The notes under the pieces were generated by a model. It did no database searches. It was not told where the DNA came from and saw only the letters and a list, made by a program, of their open reading frames with translations. Shown here in pieces: positions 1-46,352 of a stretch of 64,000 nt of DNA (position 1 is its first letter; every line of letters begins with the position of its first letter). The stretch comes from an uncultured Candidatus Berkelbacteria bacterium (GTDB taxonomy: Bacteria; Patescibacteriota; UBA1384; UBA12157). A program made the translations under genes and the position numbers. Location: positions 8,218 through 72,217 of the forward strand of contig CAIRFN010000009.1 in NCBI GenBank assembly GCA_903877885.1, in the 5' to 3' direction.

Positions 1-1113
1 GGCTTTTAGCAATTCTTCTGTTATGGCTTGATGTTTCGAGTTTAAAAATCCAATCTTTTCAAGAAAAAGCTTAATATTTTCTTTGCCAATATGGATTTCA
101 AATAACTGACCATCCAAACGGTAATTTTTTTTGACTCCATTAACGGTTTCATATTCGAAGCCAAATCTTTCTGGACGACTGCGATCATAAATTTTGGATT
201 TAATTCCTAAATTAAGAAGTAATATTTGAACATCTTTCAAAAGATTAATAGATTTGGATGTCAAACGGATAGTGCGACTATTTTTATCTTTCTGCCAGCC
301 AATCGTACCATCAGCGCTAAACAAACCCTTTAAAAATCCAATAACAGCTGATTTAGGAGCGGTAAAAATACTCTTTGGAACTCTTTTTGTCGCGGCATGA
401 TCTGATGTAACGCCAAGTGATAAAAAGAAATCGACAAGATATTGGCTATGATAAGATAAATGGTAAACACTGTCAGATCGTTTTATCGGTGTAATTTTTT
501 TAAGATAAAACTCATTAAGAATTTTCTGCGCCCGCGTCATCATATTCTCATCTTCCGAGCTAAAGGTAATTCCTAAACGGCAATTTTTACCTTGAGAAAT
601 GAGCCAGCCATCGCCAACAATTAATCCAAGAATTTCACCTAGTTCTTCGGACCACTTGTCAGGCAAATTTAAAACATATTTTCGACCGTTTTTACCTGTA
701 AAAGCTTTTTTTACGTCAAACGGTAAATCAAGATTTTGATTAAAATAACCTTCTTCTGGCTGGAGATAGATGGAGTGCGATCCTGGTACGATATCACTCA
801 TTAAAACCCAACCTAAATTAGTGTAGAATTTATGATCAGCAGTCGCGGAGATTTCATAACCTGACTCGGTGGTTAATTTGTATACTTGTTTTTTACCAGT
901 TTTAAAGACTGCGGTAGTTTTATTTAGCGAAAGTTTATGCTTAGTTTTGCCCAAAACTGCGATTGGGCCGTTAAAATAGGAATCAGGCTTAATATTGCCA
1001 AAAACAACTTCATCGGTTAAAATTTTTATTTCATTTTTTGAATAATTTTCTGCCAAATCTTTAATTTGAATTAAGCCGTTTTCTGTTGAAACAAAAGTAT
1101 TTCCGGCCACGCA
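1..1113 (-). mobile_element. Intein (partial, C-terminal splice junction lies outside the window) with a LAGLIDADG homing endonuclease domain, inserted at the NPC/GE active-site motif of NrdJ.
   Basis: After ...EVESTNP the reading frame continues CVAGNTFVSTENGLIQIKDL... for more than 370 aa. It contains two LAGLIDADG-type blocks (LGLIVGDGWL and FLKGLFSADGTI). The insertion is at the RNR site classically occupied by inteins. Confidence 0.7.
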
Positions 1114-2033
1114 CGGGTTGGTCGATTCGACTTCGCCCAAATGTTGAACCGGGCTTAGACGATTTATTTCATCAATAAAGATAATTCCTGGTTCGCCATT
1201 TCGCCAGGCACCTGCGACAATTTTTTCAAAAATATCACGGGCTTTCAAAGTATTTGTCACCGATTTATCGGACGGGTCGATTAAATCAAAATCTGTATCG
1301 TCTTCGACCGCTTTCATAAATTTATCGGTTACAGCTACGGAAATATTAAAATTACTTAAAGCACCTTCAGTTTCTTTGTAGGTGATAAATTCTATAATAT
1401 CCGGATGATCAACTCTTAGCATGCCCATGTTAGCACCGCGGCGGCGTCCACCTTCTTTGATGATGTTACTGGTGTCGTTATACATTTGCATAAAGCCAAG
1501 CGGACCAGAGGCAACGCCGCCGGTTGAACCGACTGGACTGTGATTTGGTCGAAGTCTGGAAAAACTAAAACCAGTACCGCCGCCGGATTTATGAATCAAA
1601 CCCATATCCATTTGGGTCTTTAAAATTGATTTCATATTATCTTCAATTGGCAACACAAAACAAGCCGAAAGTTGGCCGGATTTAGTGCCAGCGCCCCAGA
1701 AAGTCGGACTGTTTGGTAAAAATTCCATTTTGCACATGGTCTGGTAGATTTTATCTTCAAAAGCCTTTACTTCTGTTCCGGTGGCGCCGTATTCCAAATC
1801 AACTTTGGCAATACTGGTGGCTACTCGATGAAACATTTGGGCTGGAGTTTCAAGAAAATTATGATCTTTGTCTTTTTGTAAATAACGCTTTTCGACAACG
1901 CGCAAAGCATTTTCAGTTAGTTCTGGTTCTAATTTTTCTATTTCGTTTTTGCTGGCTAGAATAGTTTTTGATTTTTGCGGTTTCGAAGAAATAGCAAGAG
2001 TTGCTTGCTTTGGAACATTTGTTTCGTCAGGCA
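1..2033 (-). CDS. nrdJ: Class II (adenosylcobalamin-dependent) ribonucleotide reductase NrdJ, 5' part; the gene runs off the window start. N-extein is 1114..2033 and is followed by an intein.
   Basis: Own translation of the minus strand from the ATG at 2033..2031 with an upstream AGGAGG. It reads MPDETNV...FLPNSPTFWGAGT...QLSACFVLPIEDNM...GRRRGANMGML...EVESTNP, then an intein beginning CVAGNTFV. These are typical NrdJ motifs. It is absent from the ORF track only because it is truncated by the window edge. Confidence 0.8.
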
Positions 2034-2138
2034 TTCATCCTCCTTGTGATGAGTGCAAATAACAAACATTAATATAGGAAGGGCATCCTACTAATGTTTA
2101 TTATTCGCGGTTAGGTTTGTTTATAAGACACTTCGGCG

Positions 2139-3368
2139 TTATTTTAATTTTCTTCTAATAAAGGCTGGGACTTCCAATTCGTCGTCCATATTGTCATCAA
2201 CTTGCGGCATTTGTTCAGGCATACTTGGCATAGCAGTGGCTGGTCTTGATGGCGACATTGACGGTAGCCCACCAAAAGATGGTTTATTACCATATGATGG
2301 CATGCCGGTATATGATGGCGCAACGCCGTAACTGGAACGTTGGCTTGGCAAGCCGCCTAAACCAATGCCAGTCCCCATATTCATACCCAGACTTTTAGCT
2401 TTGCTTTCGCGAAAGCGATCCATTTCAAAACCAGTGGCAATCACAGTAATCTTGATTTCGCCAGACATGGCTTCGTCGATAATGGCACCAAAGATGATAT
2501 TAGCATCCGGATCAGCCGCTTCAGTAATAGCTTTAGCCGCTTCATCGATTTCGTACATACCCATATCTGGGCCACCAGTGATATTAAAAAGAATACCTTT
2601 GGCGCCGTCGATTGATAGTTCCAAAAGTGGTGAATCAATCGCTGCGCGCGCCGCTTCAATGGCTCGGTTGTCGCCTGAGGCGCGACCGATACCCATCAAA
2701 GCGGAACCAGCATCTTTCATGATGGTTCGAACATCGGCAAAGTCAACGTTAATAATTCCGTGCAAAGTAATCAAATCGGAAATACCTTGAACACCTTGAC
2801 GCAAAACATCATCAACAATACCAAAAGCATCGAATAATGAAGTTTTTTTATCAATGACTTGAAGTAAACGATCGTTTGGAATAGTGATCAAAGTATCAAC
2901 TTTATCACGAAGCTCTTCCACACCGATTTCTGCCATTTTCATCCGGCGATTACCTTCAAAAGAAAAAGGTTTGGTTACCACTGCCACAGTCAACGCACCA
3001 AGCTCTTTAGCAATCGAAGCTACCAACGGACCAGCACCAGTGCCAGTACCGCCGCCGGCGCCATAAGTCACAAAGACCATATCCGAACCTTTTAAGGCTT
3101 CGTAAATTTCATCTTTGTTTTCTTCGGCTGATTTGCGGCCTAACTCAATATCGCTCCCTGCGCCTAATCCACGAGTAGTTTCTTTGCCAATCTGAATTTT
3201 GATTGGTGCCTGGTTATGGACTAAGGCTTGGGCATCGGTGTTAATGGCAATAAATTCCACACCTTTTAATTTATAAGCAATCATACGATTGATCGCATTG
3301 CCGCCGGAACCACCACAGCCCACGACTCTAATTGTAGCAAATGTTTCGATTTCTGAACCTTTTTCCAT
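2139..3368 (-). CDS. ftsZ: Cell division GTPase FtsZ with a long low-complexity G/P/S/M-rich C-terminal tail.
   Basis: Tubulin signature [11 protein letters not shown]-terminal region [17 protein letters not shown]. Gene order ftsA-ftsZ. Confidence 0.95.
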
Positions 3369-3393: not shown

Positions 3394-4638
3394 TTACGGT
3401 AAAAACTGTTTAAAAAAGCCTTTGGCTTTATCCAAAATATTACCTGGATCCAAGCCTCGACTGGTTTGGGTATTTTGATTTTCCAAGCTATGTAGAATTA
3501 AACCCGTACTTGTAGAATAAATAGCTGGATCGATTTTGTCAACAAGACCGGCCATTTCAAAGAGTGGCATACCAATTTGTGCCGGAAGTCTTAATTCTTC
3601 TTTCGCTAGCGTGACTAAATCTTCAAGATTTGAACCGCCGCCAGTGAAAATGATTCCTGCTGGTAACATACCATCTTTACCAATCTTGCGCAACTCTTCT
3701 CTAATCATTGCAAAAATTTCCATCAGACGGGCATGAATAATTTCGGCGACATATTTTCGTTCAACTTTTTGCGTATCTTGTGGATCAAAATCAGCTAAAT
3801 CAATCGTTTCATTTTCTGCCACGTTTTCTGGAATAGCCGAACCATAATTAAGCTTAATTTTTTCTGCCACTTCTAAAGATGTTCTAAGGCCAATGGCTAA
3901 ATCGTTGGTAATATTTATAGATCCAACTGGTAAAACAGCGCAATGCAATAAGTCGCCATTTTCAAACACAGCCAGACTGGTTGTGCCGCCACCAATATCT
4001 ACCACAGCCAAACCCAAATCTTTTTGTTTTTTGTTAGTTAAAACATGAGCCGCCGCAATTGGAGCGAAAACCATACCTTCAATTGCAATATTAACTTGTT
4101 GTAGACTTTTAACCAAATTTTTGATCGCACTAGATGCGCCACTAACAACCACGGCCTCGACTTCCAGCCGAATACCGCTCATACCAATCGGATCAGAAAT
4201 TCCTTCTTGACCATCAATAATAAAATATTTTGGTACAACGTGAATAATTTCTCTGTTTGGCGGCAAGGCCACAGTTTGAGCCGCTTCCATGACACGATTA
4301 ACATCTGATGCGCTAATCTCACCATCAGCGCGACTAACAGCCACAACACCTTTGCTTAAGGTGGACATAATATGAGATCCGCCAATACTAATATTGGCGC
4401 TTTGAATTGGCATTCCAGAAATTCGCTCCGCTTCTTCTAAAGCCGAGGTAAGTGCAGAGATCGTATCTTCAGTATCTGTAATAATGCCTTTGCGCATACC
4501 AGCGTTTGGCACGCGACTAAAGCCGATAATATTAATTAAACCTTCATCAACACGACCAACAGTTACAGCCACTTTAGTCGTGCCAATATCAATCCCAACG
4601 AGCGTGTTGTCCTTTGACATATTAACTATTCCCTCCAC
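3394..4638 (-). CDS. ftsA: Cell division protein FtsA (actin-like ATPase).
   Basis: VGIDIGTTKVAVTVG actin-fold phosphate-1 motif. DIGGGTT motif. Immediately upstream of ftsZ. Confidence 0.9.
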   Translation of the reverse strand: MEGIVNMSKDNTLVGIDIGTTKVAVTVGRVDEGLINIIGFSRVPNAGMRKGIITDTEDTISALTSALEEAERISGMPIQSANISIGGSHIMSTLSKGVVAVSRADGEISASDVNRVMEAAQTVALPPNREIIHVVPKYFIIDGQEGISDPIGMSGIRLEVEAVVVSGASSAIKNLVKSLQQVNIAIEGMVFAPIAAAHVLTNKKQKDLGLAVVDIGGGTTSLAVFENGDLLHCAVLPVGSINITNDLAIGLRTSLEVAEKIKLNYGSAIPENVAENETIDLADFDPQDTQKVERKYVAEIIHARLMEIFAMIREELRKIGKDGMLPAGIIFTGGGSNLEDLVTLAKEELRLPAQIGMPLFEMAGLVDKIDPAIYSTSTGLILHSLENQNTQTSRGLDPGNILDKAKGFFKQFLP

Positions 4639-10602: not shown

Positions 10603-12075
10603 TCAGGGTTGGTAGAGTAATAATCTGGTGTCAATGATAAGCATTAAAAATCCGAAATCCTTACCCAAAAAGCTATTAGGTGGAGTATTTTTTATATCAC
10701 TAATCATTTTTTTGATAAAGTGATTTCGTTGATCGTCAGTGGTATAAAACAGTAAATCTTTTAAGATATCGGTTTCATCATAATTAAGTTTCGCAATATT
10801 CTCATTAGTGATCTGGCCATTGATTAAGTCTTTGAAATAATCATCGTTAATTTTTTTCAAAGAAAATATCAGACTCATTTTAGTATCGTTATCCAATTGA
10901 TTAGTGATAAATGTGTAAATAATGGAATAATTTGATTCCACATCGGAAATTTTATCATTTTTTAAAACAGTAAAGAGTTGGCAGATTTTTGGTAAAAGTT
11001 GCTTAACAGTATTCTGATTCATATCAAACAGGATTTGTCTAAGATTAGTCGCCGGTTTCTGTTGGTAGATAACATCAATATAGAGGTTTAGAAAATCTAA
11101 ACGATCCAGATCTTGATAGCCTAGTTTTGGTTTAGTCTTTAGTTCGGAAATCTTCTTAGAAATTATCGTAGCAAATTCCGGATCAACTGTTTGGAAAAGC
11201 TCAACTGAATCTAAACCAGCGTAAATTCCTTCAATGTTATCGATTTTAGCCAGTTCTGCTTTAGTGTTTGCTAAAATTTGATTCGCTTGTTTAATCAGAT
11301 CTAGATCTTTTGATTGTTTGCAGAAATTAATCAGTTTCTGGATATGCTCCGAATCAAAGGTGTAAGGCATTTGTTGGCCTAATGGCTCTGGTAAATGGGT
11401 ACACCGATTAAAACCGTTAGCGATAGCTAATCGAAGAAGTTGTAATTCCGGTTTATTTACAAATAAAAATTTACTCTTTGAATCTTGTTCAACTTTTGAT
11501 TCGCAATCCTTGATTAAGGCATCAAACTTTTCGTGTTTCAAGATTGCGGCAACGGTAAGTAGGTAAACCTGATCTTCTAATTCAAAATCGAGATTATTCG
11601 AGTCATTCAAAATTCGATTAAAAGCTCTTTCAGCTTCATAGTCACGGTATCTTAAGGTAATCATGGCAATTTTAGCGCGTTGTCTGATCACTGATGAATC
11701 GCTGAAACAACCGTCGTCCCAATTATTTTTTACCTGGCAGACAGCCAAATCGGTCAAGGTTGTCTCCCAGTTATTTTCAATATATTGTTCAGCCCAGTCA
11801 TCGAATTTTTTATTATCAAATAGGTAATCAGCAAAATTTAGTAGTACCACTTTTTTAACCAGCGGCGATTTAATCTTGTTGGCAACTTTGATCGCTTTCG
11901 CTGGATCATAAGCCAACTCATTGATGGCCATTGTGGCCAAAATCTGATCCTTGACCATCGGAGTAATATTTTCCTTTTGGACCTGGATCATCACTTGGTT
12001 GACGATTTGATTGGTAGCATGTGCAAACATTACTCCAATCATAAGGCAGACAGTGAGAAGGGTAAACCGGAACAT
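10603..12075 (-). CDS. Secreted hypothetical protein, paralog of 12190..13710.
   Basis: Signal peptide. Shares blocks with its neighbour (EQYIENNWETTLTDLAV vs KKYIDGNWRTIYQHLAV; NNWDDGCFS vs WNDDYREACS). Confidence 0.6.
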   Translation of the reverse strand: MFRFTLLTVCLMIGVMFAHATNQIVNQVMIQVQKENITPMVKDQILATMAINELAYDPAKAIKVANKIKSPLVKKVVLLNFADYLFDNKKFDDWAEQYIENNWETTLTDLAVCQVKNNWDDGCFSDSSVIRQRAKIAMITLRYRDYEAERAFNRILNDSNNLDFELEDQVYLLTVAAILKHEKFDALIKDCESKVEQDSKSKFLFVNKPELQLLRLAIANGFNRCTHLPEPLGQQMPYTFDSEHIQKLINFCKQSKDLDLIKQANQILANTKAELAKIDNIEGIYAGLDSVELFQTVDPEFATIISKKISELKTKPKLGYQDLDRLDFLNLYIDVIYQQKPATNLRQILFDMNQNTVKQLLPKICQLFTVLKNDKISDVESNYSIIYTFITNQLDNDTKMSLIFSLKKINDDYFKDLINGQITNENIAKLNYDETDILKDLLFYTTDDQRNHFIKKMISDIKNTPPNSFLGKDFGFLMLIIDTRLLLYQP

Positions 12076-12189: not shown

Positions 12190-13710
12190 TTATCTTATAA
12201 ATTTATGGAGATTATGTAAGACTCCTAAGTAGTAATAGTTATTATCAATATCCATACCAAAAATATGTAACTTTGGCCGATGTTTGATGTTGTCAATCAG
12301 ATGCTTTAAATAAATTTTAAAAACATCTTCTTTACTATTGGCGACCAGCTCTTGAAGTAGATCATCACTGTCAATTATTTTGGGATTGACTTGAAGTTCG
12401 AAATACCAATCGTCTATTATTGAAAAATTGTCGTTTTTAGTTAATAAAGAAATAAGCAGTCGGGTTTTAGTGATATCATTACCTTTTTCCATGGCAAAAT
12501 ATCTAATCCCGTCGACTTCCATTGAATTATCGCCATCAACATTTTTAATATCTCTCAGATCTGATTTAGCAATAAAATCGCAAATCATATCCAAATACTC
12601 TTTAGTATTTTCCTCATTCAGATTATAAAGAGCTTGATAAACATCAGTATATGGGACTTTTTCTTTTAAAATTACTTCCTTAATATATTGAATAAAGAAG
12701 CTAAAACTGGCTTGGTCTTGCAAACATAAATTCTTTTGCTCACTTAAAATCTTCACCTGTTCGGCTAAAATTTTTCCCAAACTTGGGTCAAGCGGCGTAA
12801 AGGCCACGGCGGCCTGACAGGCAGTGGGAATATCTTCAGCTTTTTTCAATTGCTTGAATTGAGTTTCAAGCTCCAGCCTGATTTTATCTAATCTCTTGTC
12901 GAATTCTAATTCTGGTTTTTTTGCTGCTTTGATGTAATTTAGGTAACAAGTAATATTATTATCATTAAAAGTGTAGTAAGGATATAAACCCTCGGGATCA
13001 GGTACAATGAAATGTGGATGACCAGCTTGGGCGGCCATAGCATACAATTCAATGCCTGGTTTGTAAAAATACAGAAATTCTTTTGTTTGACTAGCAAACG
13101 GAGAATTCTGGCTATAGCTAACTAGCTCTCGATCAAGATCATCAACACTGATTTGCGATAAAATGGCCAATAAGCCATATTCATTTTCGAAATCTCTTTT
13201 CATATTATTAGAACAATAATACGATTCGGCCATGACTTTTTGCATAATCGAGCAAGCCTCGCGATAATCATCATTCCAACAAATTGCCCAAGCTACCAAA
13301 GCCTTTTGATTAAGGATTTCTCTGTTTGCAGCAAATTCAGAGGCATAAGACTCGTTTTGAGCCTGTTTTACAGCTAAATGCTGGTAAATAGTTCTCCAAT
13401 TTCCATCAATGTATTTTTTTGCCCAATCTCTCTGTGTTCCTTCGCGGAAAAAATAACCGGCTACCAGAAGCGAAGTTAAATCTTTTAATTCCGGATCCTT
13501 AATAGCTTTAATCCTTTTTATTGTCAGATCCGGATTGTTGTCGATTTCGTTTAAAAGAATGTCTAACTTTAATTCGTTGCGAACCGAATCAGACATCTTA
13601 ACTTTTTCTAAACCAGAAAGAATTGTTTTCAGGTTTGTCGATTGGTCGGCCATGACCGCAAAGCAAATCCCTAGCAACAGCGTGATCGCTAGAATACGAC
13701 CTAGTTTCAT
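12190..13710 (-). CDS. Secreted hypothetical protein, paralog of 10603..12075. Start chosen at an internal Met with an AGGAG RBS and a signal peptide; the track ORF extends to 13917.
   Basis: MKLGRILAITLLLGICFAVMA signal peptide preceded by AGGAG. Paralogy blocks with the neighbouring gene. Confidence 0.6.
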   Translation of the reverse strand: MKLGRILAITLLLGICFAVMADQSTNLKTILSGLEKVKMSDSVRNELKLDILLNEIDNNPDLTIKRIKAIKDPELKDLTSLLVAGYFFREGTQRDWAKKYIDGNWRTIYQHLAVKQAQNESYASEFAANREILNQKALVAWAICWNDDYREACSIMQKVMAESYYCSNNMKRDFENEYGLLAILSQISVDDLDRELVSYSQNSPFASQTKEFLYFYKPGIELYAMAAQAGHPHFIVPDPEGLYPYYTFNDNNITCYLNYIKAAKKPELEFDKRLDKIRLELETQFKQLKKAEDIPTACQAAVAFTPLDPSLGKILAEQVKILSEQKNLCLQDQASFSFFIQYIKEVILKEKVPYTDVYQALYNLNEENTKEYLDMICDFIAKSDLRDIKNVDGDNSMEVDGIRYFAMEKGNDITKTRLLISLLTKNDNFSIIDDWYFELQVNPKIIDSDDLLQELVANSKEDVFKIYLKHLIDNIKHRPKLHIFGMDIDNNYYYLGVLHNLHKFIR

Positions 13711-13822
13711 CGGTTTTCTCCTCAAGGTTAAATTGTCCAAGTACAGGACTACTGTTATATTATCAAATAATCTTTTATTGTCAATTATGATTAAAAAACC
13801 GCCGTTTGGCGGTTTTTTCGCG

Positions 13823-14917
13823 TTATTTAATTGTGATTTGTTGGAAAACTTCCGGTGGAGCAATTTCATACCAGAATTGGCCGGGAATAAATTTAATTTC
13901 TGACCCATTTTCATCAAAAAATAAGGTTCGATCGGTTAAACCGGTTTTCTTCCATGTAGCTTTGATTTGTTTTCCATCAATAAAAACTAAAGCATTACCA
14001 GTGCCAATCGTTTTCATTGCAAAGCCTTCTTCGTTAATCGTTGTTGGCGCTGACCAACGTTCCACTTCTTGAATGATCAGGTTTGAAGCGGCCAATTGCG
14101 GACCGCTTAGCTCATCACGATGCGGGCTACCTGCTAAGGTTCTTAAATAGGTATTAGTTTTAGCATCATAATCCCAACGGACCAGGTAAGAACTAGTGGA
14201 AAAATTAATGGTAATAGTCTGGATAGAATCTGGATTTGGCGCTGGTTGACGAAAATTTAAAGCTTGAAAATTACTAGCCTGTGGATAACTTTTGGTTTTT
14301 GCTGCTTGATACAGGTTCGTGGTATTGCTATACATCGTATGTTCAATCGCTTTAGTGGCATCGGCAATTCGATAATAAGTTGGCTCGCCCAAACTGAACT
14401 GGTCTAAATCTAAAATATTATCAGTTTTAATCTGGTCGAGCGCATCTAAATTACCGCCAACATGAGCATAATAAGCATTGTATTCGCTTAACCAATCAAT
14501 AAAGTAAGTTCGAGCTGAGCGAATTGGACCGATCTTTGGTGCGTCAGCTGGGCCAAAAATTGCCATAAATCGAGTAATTCCACCTTCAGTTATTGCTTCG
14601 TAGACAATTGAAGCTTTGCTTAAACCTGATTGTGGCCGGGCATCAGGATGATTTTCGACCATAACGGCCAGAGGATGTCGTTTAGCTAAATCTTCATCAA
14701 CTGTTGTGCCATCAAGTTTACTAACAACTTGAGTTTTAATCTGATTATTATTTGAAAAAATGTTACCAAATGAGTTTCCTTTTAGGAAATAACGGAAGTA
14801 GATAACTGAACCAGTGAAAAAAACTGCCATGACTAGTATAATAATTAAAATCATCACCCATGGATTTTGAGTGTTTGATTCTTGATTATGATAATTTTGG
14901 TTCATTTTTACCTCCAT
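13823..14917 (-). CDS. DUF3048 (YerB-like) domain membrane-anchored protein.
   Basis: N-terminal TM. RPQSGLSKASIVYEAITEGGITRFMAIF block reminiscent of the DUF3048 N-domain. Confidence 0.45.
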   Translation of the reverse strand: MEVKMNQNYHNQESNTQNPWVMILIIILVMAVFFTGSVIYFRYFLKGNSFGNIFSNNNQIKTQVVSKLDGTTVDEDLAKRHPLAVMVENHPDARPQSGLSKASIVYEAITEGGITRFMAIFGPADAPKIGPIRSARTYFIDWLSEYNAYYAHVGGNLDALDQIKTDNILDLDQFSLGEPTYYRIADATKAIEHTMYSNTTNLYQAAKTKSYPQASNFQALNFRQPAPNPDSIQTITINFSTSSYLVRWDYDAKTNTYLRTLAGSPHRDELSGPQLAASNLIIQEVERWSAPTTINEEGFAMKTIGTGNALVFIDGKQIKATWKKTGLTDRTLFFDENGSEIKFIPGQFWYEIAPPEVFQQITIK

Positions 14918-18420: not shown

Positions 18421-19530
18421 TTAAAGTAGTTTAATCGAATTAATCATATTTTGGTAAATAACTTTGCCAGTATCAAAAGTCTTGGTTGGTGCGTAATAAG
18501 AAATAATCATAACTTTATTAGCCTGAAAAACATAAGTGTTGATCTGTTTAGTGCTGGCAGTAATAGTCTGTTGATACGCGTCTTTGCCATCAATTTTGAG
18601 TAGGGTTAAATTTGGTGTACCGTAGCCGCCAATTGTGTTGTCATCAGCAATCCAATCTTTGAGTAGTTTGCTATTGGTATTTTGAAAAGAAATTTCAACT
18701 TTGTAGCCATCAGCTGTAGTTGTCGTCGAGGGTTTGATGCTGGTAAAGGTCGCAGTATCGGCTTGGGTATTATCCGTATTTTGGCCAAACCAAGTATCGG
18801 GGAATTTGATAATATATTTATATTTATCATTATTATAATTTGTCCAATTACTAGTTAAATCACCTGAAGCTGAAGGACTGGCAGAAACTGATGGCGAAAT
18901 AGATGGAGAAATTTCTATTAGTGGGGCAATCTGGGCTGGGTTATCTTGGCTAATAGTATCGGCAGAAATAGCATTATTTTTTAATAAATCTGGATAATAT
19001 TTATAGCCGAAAAATCCACTACCTAAACCTAAAACTAAAACAATCATAGAAATGACAGTTGTCACTGCAACTGATCGATTATTATTAAACTGATAATGAT
19101 CGACGACTGGTCTTTGGTTTACTTCTGGCTCGCCGTGATCTTCAGTGTGATTTTCTTTTGAAAGCGGAATATCATATTGTTGAATTTCAATCTGGCCATT
19201 ATTGGTATTCGGGGTATTATTGGCAACTCGTTTAACTGTTTTAGGAAAAATATCATCATCGCCATTATTTGAACCAAAAATTTGTTTAAACGACCGATCT
19301 TTATCGGTAATACGAGGATCTTCTACCGCGGGCATCGTTGGCACATGAATTTCACCGGTGGCTATAGGTTTATTCTCTGGCATCTGATTGTCTGTTTCAA
19401 CCGGTATTTCTTGTGGCTTTAGTTGTGTCAATGAATCAATATTCATATCATCAACTTGACCATTGTTGTGATCGGTTGGCGTTTGAGTTTGGCTAGTTGG
19501 ATCTGGATTTATCATTTGATTATCATCCAT
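18421..19530 (-). CDS. Membrane-anchored hypothetical protein with a low-complexity N-terminal region.
   Basis: Long ORF, one TM segment, S/P-rich linker. No recognisable domain. Confidence 0.45.
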   Translation of the reverse strand: MDDNQMINPDPTSQTQTPTDHNNGQVDDMNIDSLTQLKPQEIPVETDNQMPENKPIATGEIHVPTMPAVEDPRITDKDRSFKQIFGSNNGDDDIFPKTVKRVANNTPNTNNGQIEIQQYDIPLSKENHTEDHGEPEVNQRPVVDHYQFNNNRSVAVTTVISMIVLVLGLGSGFFGYKYYPDLLKNNAISADTISQDNPAQIAPLIEISPSISPSVSASPSASGDLTSNWTNYNNDKYKYIIKFPDTWFGQNTDNTQADTATFTSIKPSTTTTADGYKVEISFQNTNSKLLKDWIADDNTIGGYGTPNLTLLKIDGKDAYQQTITASTKQINTYVFQANKVMIISYYAPTKTFDTGKVIYQNMINSIKLL

Positions 19531-45916: not shown

Positions 45917-46046
45917 GACCTGGCGAGAAACTTTATGACGCAACGCGTCTGGTTACCTGAAGGCGGACTCGAGCGTTATAAATATAATTTGGACCTGGCG
46001 AGAAGCTATAACCTAAAGGCGGACTCGCGCGTTATCAATATAATTT
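45917..46046. repeat. Two tandem direct repeats (about 74 bp and 56 bp) abutting the 3' end of tRNA-Ala. Each begins TGGACCT, identical to the tRNA 3' acceptor end, and ends GGCGGACTCG[AC]GCGTTAT[AC]AATATAATT.
   Basis: Read directly. Repeat 1 equals repeat 2 plus an about 18-nt insertion containing hairpin GACGC-aac-GCGTC. Repeat 2 also contains ACCTAAAG, identical to the tRNA T-arm junction. Confidence 0.6.
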
Positions 46047-46119
46047 TGGACCTAAAGAGATTCGAACTCTCTACCTCTTCAATGCGAATGAAGCGCTCTA
46101 CCAACTGAGCTATAGGCCC
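46047..46119 (-). tRNA. tRNA-Ala (anticodon CGC); CCA not encoded.
   Basis: Minus-strand sequence GGGCCTATAGCTCAGTTGGTAGAGCGCTTCATTCGCATTGAAGAGGTAGAGAGTTCGAATCTCTTTAGGTCCA. Cloverleaf with G3:U70. Anticodon loop TTCGCAT. Confidence 0.8.
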
Positions 46120-46266
46120 AAAATTATATCGACAATGCGAATGTGGTGTTGTGCCACTTAACCACAGGCCCAGATATATCTTTACAACCCCATCTTACCA
46201 CTTTCTTCCCTTGAATTCAATTAAGAAATCGATTATAATAGTATTAAGGTAATTGGATTATCATTT

Positions 46267-46352
46267 GCCCGGGTGATGGAACGGTAGACATGTAGGTCTC
46301 AAAAACCTATGAGCGCAAGCTCATGCGAGTTCGATTCTCGCCCCGGGCACCA
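46267..46352 (+). tRNA. tRNA-Leu (anticodon CAA), type II with a long variable arm; CCA encoded.
   Basis: GCCCGGG...TAGGT-CTCAAAA-ACCTA-TGAGCGCAAGCTCA-...CCCGGGCACCA. 7-bp acceptor stem. Variable-arm hairpin. Confidence 0.85.

Follow-up and report, generated by a model that had tools for sequence, protein, structure and literature searches.

What interrupts the ribonucleotide reductase (RNR) gene at the edge of this DNA, and would the interrupting element be able to splice and to move? In the window, by which we mean the whole 64-kb stretch of DNA analyzed here, the minus strand translates from position 2034 to position 1 through 678 stop-free codons. They open as the reductase gene nrdJ at an ATG (2034-2032), run to ...LGEVESTNP and pass directly into CVAGNTFVSTENG. 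The boundary between the N-extein and the insert falls between bases 1114 and 1113; the sequence around it reads ...INRLSPVQHLGEVESTNP/CVAGNTFVSTENGL..., where here and below a slash marks the insertion point. The locus is laid out as follows.

2139 to 3368, minus strand: ftsZ, upstream of nrdJ, with domains PF00091 and PF12327; it anchors the synteny with L081, the contig of a close relative described below.
2045 to 2039, minus strand: a Shine-Dalgarno-like AAGGAGG, 4 nt 5' of the nrdJ ATG, as seen in the sequence itself.
1114 to 2034, minus strand: the nrdJ N-extein, residues 1-307, ending in ...GEVESTNP, recognized by profiles, by PDB entry 1xje and by intein-less relatives.
1 to 1113, minus strand: the visible part of the intein, residues 308-678, recognized by TIGR01445, PF14890, PF14528, a structure model and fold matches.

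The initial annotation of this DNA had described a clean NrdJ N-terminus through ...GEVESTNP, followed by a stop-free insert of more than 370 residues that starts with Cys and sits exactly at the NPCGE point, in a frame that leaves the window and puts the C-terminal splice junction outside it. Translation and comparison bear this out: residues 1-307 match NrdJ models and 1xje, Cys308 is the first of 371 intein residues visible in the window, intein-less orthologs are continuous between NP and CGE, and the frame does run off at the window's end. The range given for the feature, 1-2033, was right as to the frame and one base short at its end, the start ATG reaching 2034. An open stretch of 371 codons in DNA of 34% GC has a chance of ~2.4e-13 from base composition alone, and the other two minus-strand frames hold 23 and 44 stops. 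As had also been remarked, the gene is absent from the mechanical list of open reading frames; this is because its frame continues past the window edge. At a contig edge, gene callers will miss the gene.

The N-extein consists of the all-alpha domain of RNR (PF00317, 2.2e-19) followed by the barrel's first half (PF02867, 1.3e-55, matched over positions 1-213 of that domain). B12-dependent reductases account for all of its best NCBIfam models (NF006417, 3.2e-127; NF005010; TIGR02504, NrdJ_Z, 4.9e-91), whose scores lie under the full-length cut-offs solely because the protein is cut short. In the PDB it is closest to NrdJ of Thermotoga maritima (1xje, 2.6e-51), and the alignment reaches exactly to ...STNPC. 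Judged by its sequence, the host gene is a class II (adenosylcobalamin/B12-dependent) ribonucleotide reductase, NrdJ. The genes ftsA (3394-4638) and ftsZ (2139-3368) lie directly upstream on the same, minus strand. Upstream of nrdJ, an Rfam search found neither a riboswitch nor any other RNA. In the whole 64 kb, Rfam and ARAGORN match only two divergent tRNA genes, tRNA-Ala(CGC) and tRNA-Leu(CAA), at 46046-46352. No further intein or LAGLIDADG copy was found elsewhere in the window. No Pfam domain matches three other minus-strand open reading frames at E <= 1e-5 (10603-12075, 12190-13917 and 18421-19530; 490, 575 and 369 aa); their neighbors are genes for an L,D-transpeptidase, a PGA_cap protein, a DUF3048 protein and a histidine kinase.

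The uninterrupted form of the gene is found in close relatives. In a homolog search that covered 5.8 billion proteins, the most similar exteins were those of three intein-less proteins of 810-817 aa (P0082-84), 84-87% identical over the N-extein, which read ...ESTNP/CGEQPLLPYESCNLGS... across the site. The contig that encodes the first of them, L081, shares the window's ftsZ-nrdJ order, with FtsZ 88% identical and the N-extein DNA 79% identical. Its empty nrdJ site reads ...AACCCT/TGCGGTGAG..., after which nrdJ continues with CGEQ... and a TSCPD domain; next comes a gene for cob(I)alamin adenosyltransferase. The candidate endonuclease target at this site is ...GTCGAATCGACTAACCCT/TGCGGTGAGCAGCCC..., also given as ...GTCGAATCGACTAACCCT/TGCGGTGAGCAGCCCTTACTTCC.... 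Intein-less STNP/CGEQ sites were recovered from P0082-84, from L081 and from ~65 loci. The comparison with intein-less nrdJ alleles that had been proposed at the outset thus has a clear result, P0082-84 and L081 both reading STNP/CGEQ without an insert. The closest N-exteins in GTDB representative genomes are 57-67% identical and come from seven Patescibacteria, Berkelbacteria and Saccharibacteria among them; the intein is present in only one of these seven, a Saccharibacteria metagenome-assembled genome (MAG), L002. The residue after the insertion point is the Cys of CGE in every homolog, intein-bearing or not. The point directly N-terminal to this thiyl-radical cysteine is the commonest insertion site of contiguous RNR inteins (Dassa et al., PMC2677866).

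The insert itself carries the conserved blocks of an intein with an embedded endonuclease. They are listed below with their conservation in an alignment of 45 family members, the conserved positions being given in intein numbering.

1113 to 1075, minus strand: block A with the Cys1 nucleophile, CVAGNTFVSTENG; C1, G13 and L14 are invariant.
861 to 820, minus strand: block B, GYEISATADHKFYT, residues 392-405 of the frame, with Thr B:7 at residue 398 and His B:10 at residue 401.
642 to 601, minus strand: first LAGLIDADG motif (block C), LGEILGLIVGDGWL, with the catalytic Asp475 in LIVGDG; matched by PF14528.
387 to 364, minus strand: block D, KRVPKSIF, with its Lys at residue 550; K243, V245 and P246 are nearly invariant.
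345 to 301, minus strand: second LAGLIDADG motif (block E), VIGFLKGLFSADGTI, with the catalytic Asp575 in LFSADG; D268 is nearly invariant.
222 to 187, minus strand: block H, LLLNLGIKSKIY; L298 and I304 are nearly invariant, L299 and G303 invariant.

Intein profiles, a check that the initial annotation had suggested, match the insert on both its splicing and its endonuclease parts: TIGR01445 (intein_Nterm) at 3e-15, with 57 bits against a cut-off of 24.5, PF14890 as well, and PF14528 (LAGLIDADG_3) at 8.6e-25 in two stretches, the better of which covers residues 564-662. The two LAGLIDADG-like blocks that it had quoted stand as written, LGLIVGDGWL at residues 469-478 and FLKGLFSADGTI at residues 567-578. 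The Thr and His of block B, which activate the N-terminal splice site in inteins (PMC4031507), correspond to T91 and H94 and are invariant across the 45 sequences, and the Asp of the first LAGLIDADG motif, D168, is nearly so. The window intein retains all of the invariant and nearly invariant positions of this alignment, including C1, T91, H94, D168, K243 and D268, and nothing in its visible part looks degenerate. By sequence, its matches in the PDB are the V-ATPase inteins 7qsu and 7qss (~6e-14), PI-PkoII and PI-PfuI.

An AlphaFold model of the 371-residue intein fragment, computed with the 45-sequence alignment as input, reached a pLDDT of 91 and a pTM of 0.90, and its sole disordered part is a variable loop at residues 41-57. 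The first LAGLIDADG motif is predicted to form a helix at intein residues 156-168. From there to residue 353, the model shows the duplicated alpha-beta-beta-alpha-beta-beta-alpha fold of a LAGLIDADG endonuclease, in a full-size domain modeled with a pLDDT above 90. The top Foldseek matches in the PDB are intein endonucleases, TliVMA (2.4e-17) and then PhoVMA, PI-PfuI, PI-PkoII and PI-SceI; of these, PI-PfuI comes from a Pyrococcus RNR gene. Monomeric two-motif LAGLIDADG enzymes come next (I-DmoI, I-Tsp061I; TM 0.67-0.74 on target length). A HINT fold is present too: the N-terminal beta-strand region and the endonuclease together align to solved inteins over 371-493 columns, with TM ~0.5-0.58, the C-terminal HINT strands lying outside the modeled fragment.

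Could the insert instead be a permanent part of the protein, a domain insertion or a HINT-like fusion of the BIL type that never splices? We give this next to no credence. The insert lies between the Pro and the catalytic Cys of the active-site loop; its retention would be incompatible with catalysis. It also carries the intein-specific blocks A and B and belongs to an allelic family with canonical C-terminal junctions. The insert is a genuine intein, a new and divergent member (<=54% identity) of a well-known kind.

That allelic family is large and widespread. We found 110 NrdJ proteins with an insert of 361-415 aa at the identical point, reading STNP/C.../CGEQ with the insert between the slashes. 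Their hosts include Omnitrophota, Bacillota, Bathyarchaeia, Aenigmatarchaeota, Thermoplasmatota, Promethearchaeota and others, among them cultured Bacillota (Clostridia, Halanaerobiales) of the genera Iocasia, Aceticella, Caminicella, Caloramator and Thermotalea. Identity to the window intein ranges from 33 to 54% across the family, the best matches being L002 (54.0%) and P0001 (53.5%). A neighbor-joining tree places the window intein beside L002, with long branches; L002 is also the only other complete Patescibacteria intein that was recovered. A protein search with the intein alone gave 25 matches, none above ~55% identity and all in RNR genes except P0144, P0139, P0131 and P0123. A further entry, P0143, is annotated as a partial LAGLIDADG endonuclease of a Patescibacteria group bacterium.

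What lies beyond the window can be approached through these relatives. Pairwise alignments to the nearest homologs stop 41-45 residues short of their C-termini, suggesting that the intein would go on for ~41-45 residues (blocks F and G) beyond window position 1, where its terminal residue, the +1 Cys and a C-extein of ~500 residues would also lie. Because blocks F and G and the C-extein fall there, the completeness and the splicing competence of the window intein are read from its relatives only. All 110 complete allelic homologs end in Asn, Asp or Gln, with the terminal dipeptides HN (51), LD (17), HQ (17), SN (14), RQ (6), RD (4) and AQ (1). The penultimate His is absent from 59 of the 110, and 45 of them end in Asp (21) or Gln (24). 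These dipeptide types cluster by clade in the neighbor-joining tree of the allelic NrdJ inteins, and the ten inteins most identical to the window intein, together with L002, all have no penultimate His and end in SN, RD, RQ or LD. The initial annotation had proposed that a true continuation should show a terminal HN followed by the resumed reductase; as a test this is too strict, as 59 of the 110 genuine family members would fail it. A genuine continuation may lack HN because the nearest inteins end in SN, RD, RQ or LD. Splicing with a C-terminal Asp or Gln, or without the penultimate His, is documented in the passages of PMC4031507 that cite Amitai et al. 2004 and Chen et al. 2000.

The same hidden stretch leaves room for another reading, a broken or pseudogenized nrdJ whose truncation, frameshift or assembly break lies beyond the window, in a cell that uses another reductase. 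The C-terminal ~45 intein and ~500 C-extein residues are indeed outside the window, and an exact 32-mer from the window edge had no match in the genome-contig or metagenome-contig collections; a protein-level scan of metagenome contigs with the intein as query likewise gave no relative. We nevertheless consider a broken gene very unlikely: the frame stays open over 678 codons although the DNA is AT-rich (for just the part in the intein, the chance is ~2e-13), no family-conserved residue has been lost, and the end of the window, an arbitrary cut, is no evidence of truncation.

Our preferred reading is that of a full-size class 1 intein with a monomeric two-motif LAGLIDADG homing endonuclease, lying in frame in a Patescibacteria-like nrdJ, directly N-terminal to the thiyl-radical Cys of NPCGE, which would splice and home. 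We put the probability of this reading at roughly 90%. By the standard class 1 pathway (PMC4031507), a precursor of ~1,200 aa would be translated and Cys1 would undergo an N-S acyl shift. The resulting thioester would be attacked by the +1 Cys, which is to become the thiyl-radical cysteine in the NPCGE loop. Cyclization of the C-terminal Asn, Asp or Gln would then release the intein, and an S-N shift would join the exteins into ...STNPCGEQ..., giving active enzyme. According to the classical homing model, the freed endonuclease would cut intein-less nrdJ at the conserved ESTNP/CGEQ coding sequence, and repair from the intein-bearing allele would copy the element into the cut gene. We propose homing as the explanation for the patchy distribution among close relatives; such patchiness, together with an allelic family that crosses from bacteria into archaea, is the signature expected of a homing element.

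When the intein arrived is a separate matter. With a GC content of 34% and a GC3 of 27%, it is within ~1 SD of the window's genes and is no visibly recent arrival; as a signal of foreign DNA, composition is uninformative for this intein. Recent homing is not demonstrable because no intein in the databases is closer than 54% identity. Near the junction we saw no signal of co-conversion: the last 45 nt of the N-extein differ from L081 to about the same degree as the full N-extein does (79% identity). For a phage vector we searched 50,697 phage records by tblastn and obtained only distant inteins, <=26% identical, in terminase, helicase and polymerase genes.

Some of these results would also suit a splicing intein whose endonuclease is inactive, a long-resident, vertically inherited element late in its homing cycle that is kept solely because precise deletion is rare. 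The absence of any close intein relative (<=54% identity), the host-gene-like composition and the position next to L002 on long branches are all in keeping with it. Both LAGLIDADG Asp residues, the Lys of block D and all family-conserved endonuclease residues are retained, however, in a full-size endonuclease domain with pLDDT above 90, and the closest extein relatives are intein-less, which suits gain or loss rather than fixation. We regard an inactive endonuclease as unlikely.

Among known systems, the window intein is most reminiscent of the contiguous RNR inteins (InBase RIR1) of class I/II reductases, with which it shares the host family, the STNP/CGE insertion point, Cys1 and an embedded LAGLIDADG endonuclease. 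In RIR1 inteins the +1 Cys is the radical cysteine, and homologs suggest that the +1 Cys of the window intein would be so too. The window intein differs from its RIR1 alleles in being only 33-54% identical to them and in having a Patescibacteria-like host. RNR is the second commonest bacterial intein host, with 211 inteins, and Patescibacteria are absent from the phylum list of that 2015 survey (PMC4760082); L002 and P0143 are Patescibacteria inteins of this kind that are already in public assemblies.

The solved intein endonucleases TliVMA and PhoVMA (7qss, 7qsu, 7qst), PI-PfuI (1dq3), PI-PkoII (2cw7) and PI-SceI (1lws, 1vde) share with the window intein a HINT domain interrupted by a double-motif LAGLIDADG enzyme. 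Foldseek matches them over nearly the whole fragment at 2.4e-17 to 6e-09, whereas their sequence identity to it is 10-21%, and several of them differ from it in host protein (V-ATPase, DNA polymerase) and in target site. Inteins with atypical Gln or Asp ends, such as the CIV RNR intein (Amitai et al. 2004, as presented in passages of PMC4031507), resemble the allelic family in its ends; SN or RD stands at the ends of the inteins nearest to that of the window. The split inteins NrdJ-1 and NrdJ-2 (Dassa et al. 2009) have in common with the window intein the host enzyme class and the active-site loop. They are split, with a free-standing endonuclease gene between the halves, and sit one residue further C-terminal (PMC2677866), whereas the window intein is contiguous over at least 371 residues and has its endonuclease in frame.

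A more adventurous idea concerns regulation. A disulfide between Cys1 and the +1 Cys, or a slow C-terminus of the Asp or Gln type, could make splicing conditional on redox state and so gate dNTP synthesis post-translationally in a Patescibacteria symbiont with a reduced genome. We offer this as speculation and think it highly improbable. If it were true, the intein would be more than a passenger, its +1 nucleophile being the thiyl-radical cysteine itself, with Cys1 adjoining.

For annotation, the gene should be recorded as an nrdJ with an intein; neither "fusion protein" nor a separate "LAGLIDADG endonuclease" would be the right label. One divergent sequence (<=54% identity) is added to the largest allelic class of RNR inteins, and beyond annotation and one more data point on intein distribution its importance is small. 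Of practical value for intein-detection rules are the counts of 59/110 family members without a penultimate His and 45/110 ending in Asp or Gln, and the allelic NrdJ family constitutes a large natural set of such inteins. The Patescibacteria intein and the syntenic, intein-less close relative L081 form a usable pair for testing homing.

A few sequences met along the way merit mention in their own right. P0144, a stand-alone open reading frame of 371 aa, is 27% identical to the intein fragment over 99% of its length. It has a 7-residue leader, a Cys-LVVTENG start, both LAGLIDADG motifs and the end ...ANGILVR, with no C-extein, and may be a free-standing intein-like HINT and endonuclease protein. 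In P0142, from a Fervidobacterium MAG, the N-terminus of a polyprenyl synthetase runs directly into an allelic intein's second half and the NrdJ C-extein, probably through misassembly or a rearrangement inside the intein. Finally, a Nanoarchaeia MAG (L054) and an uncultured archaeon (L058) each have two separate intein-less nrdJ frames within ~10 kb, and these copies carry the motif ESTNP or EATNP directly before CGEQ.
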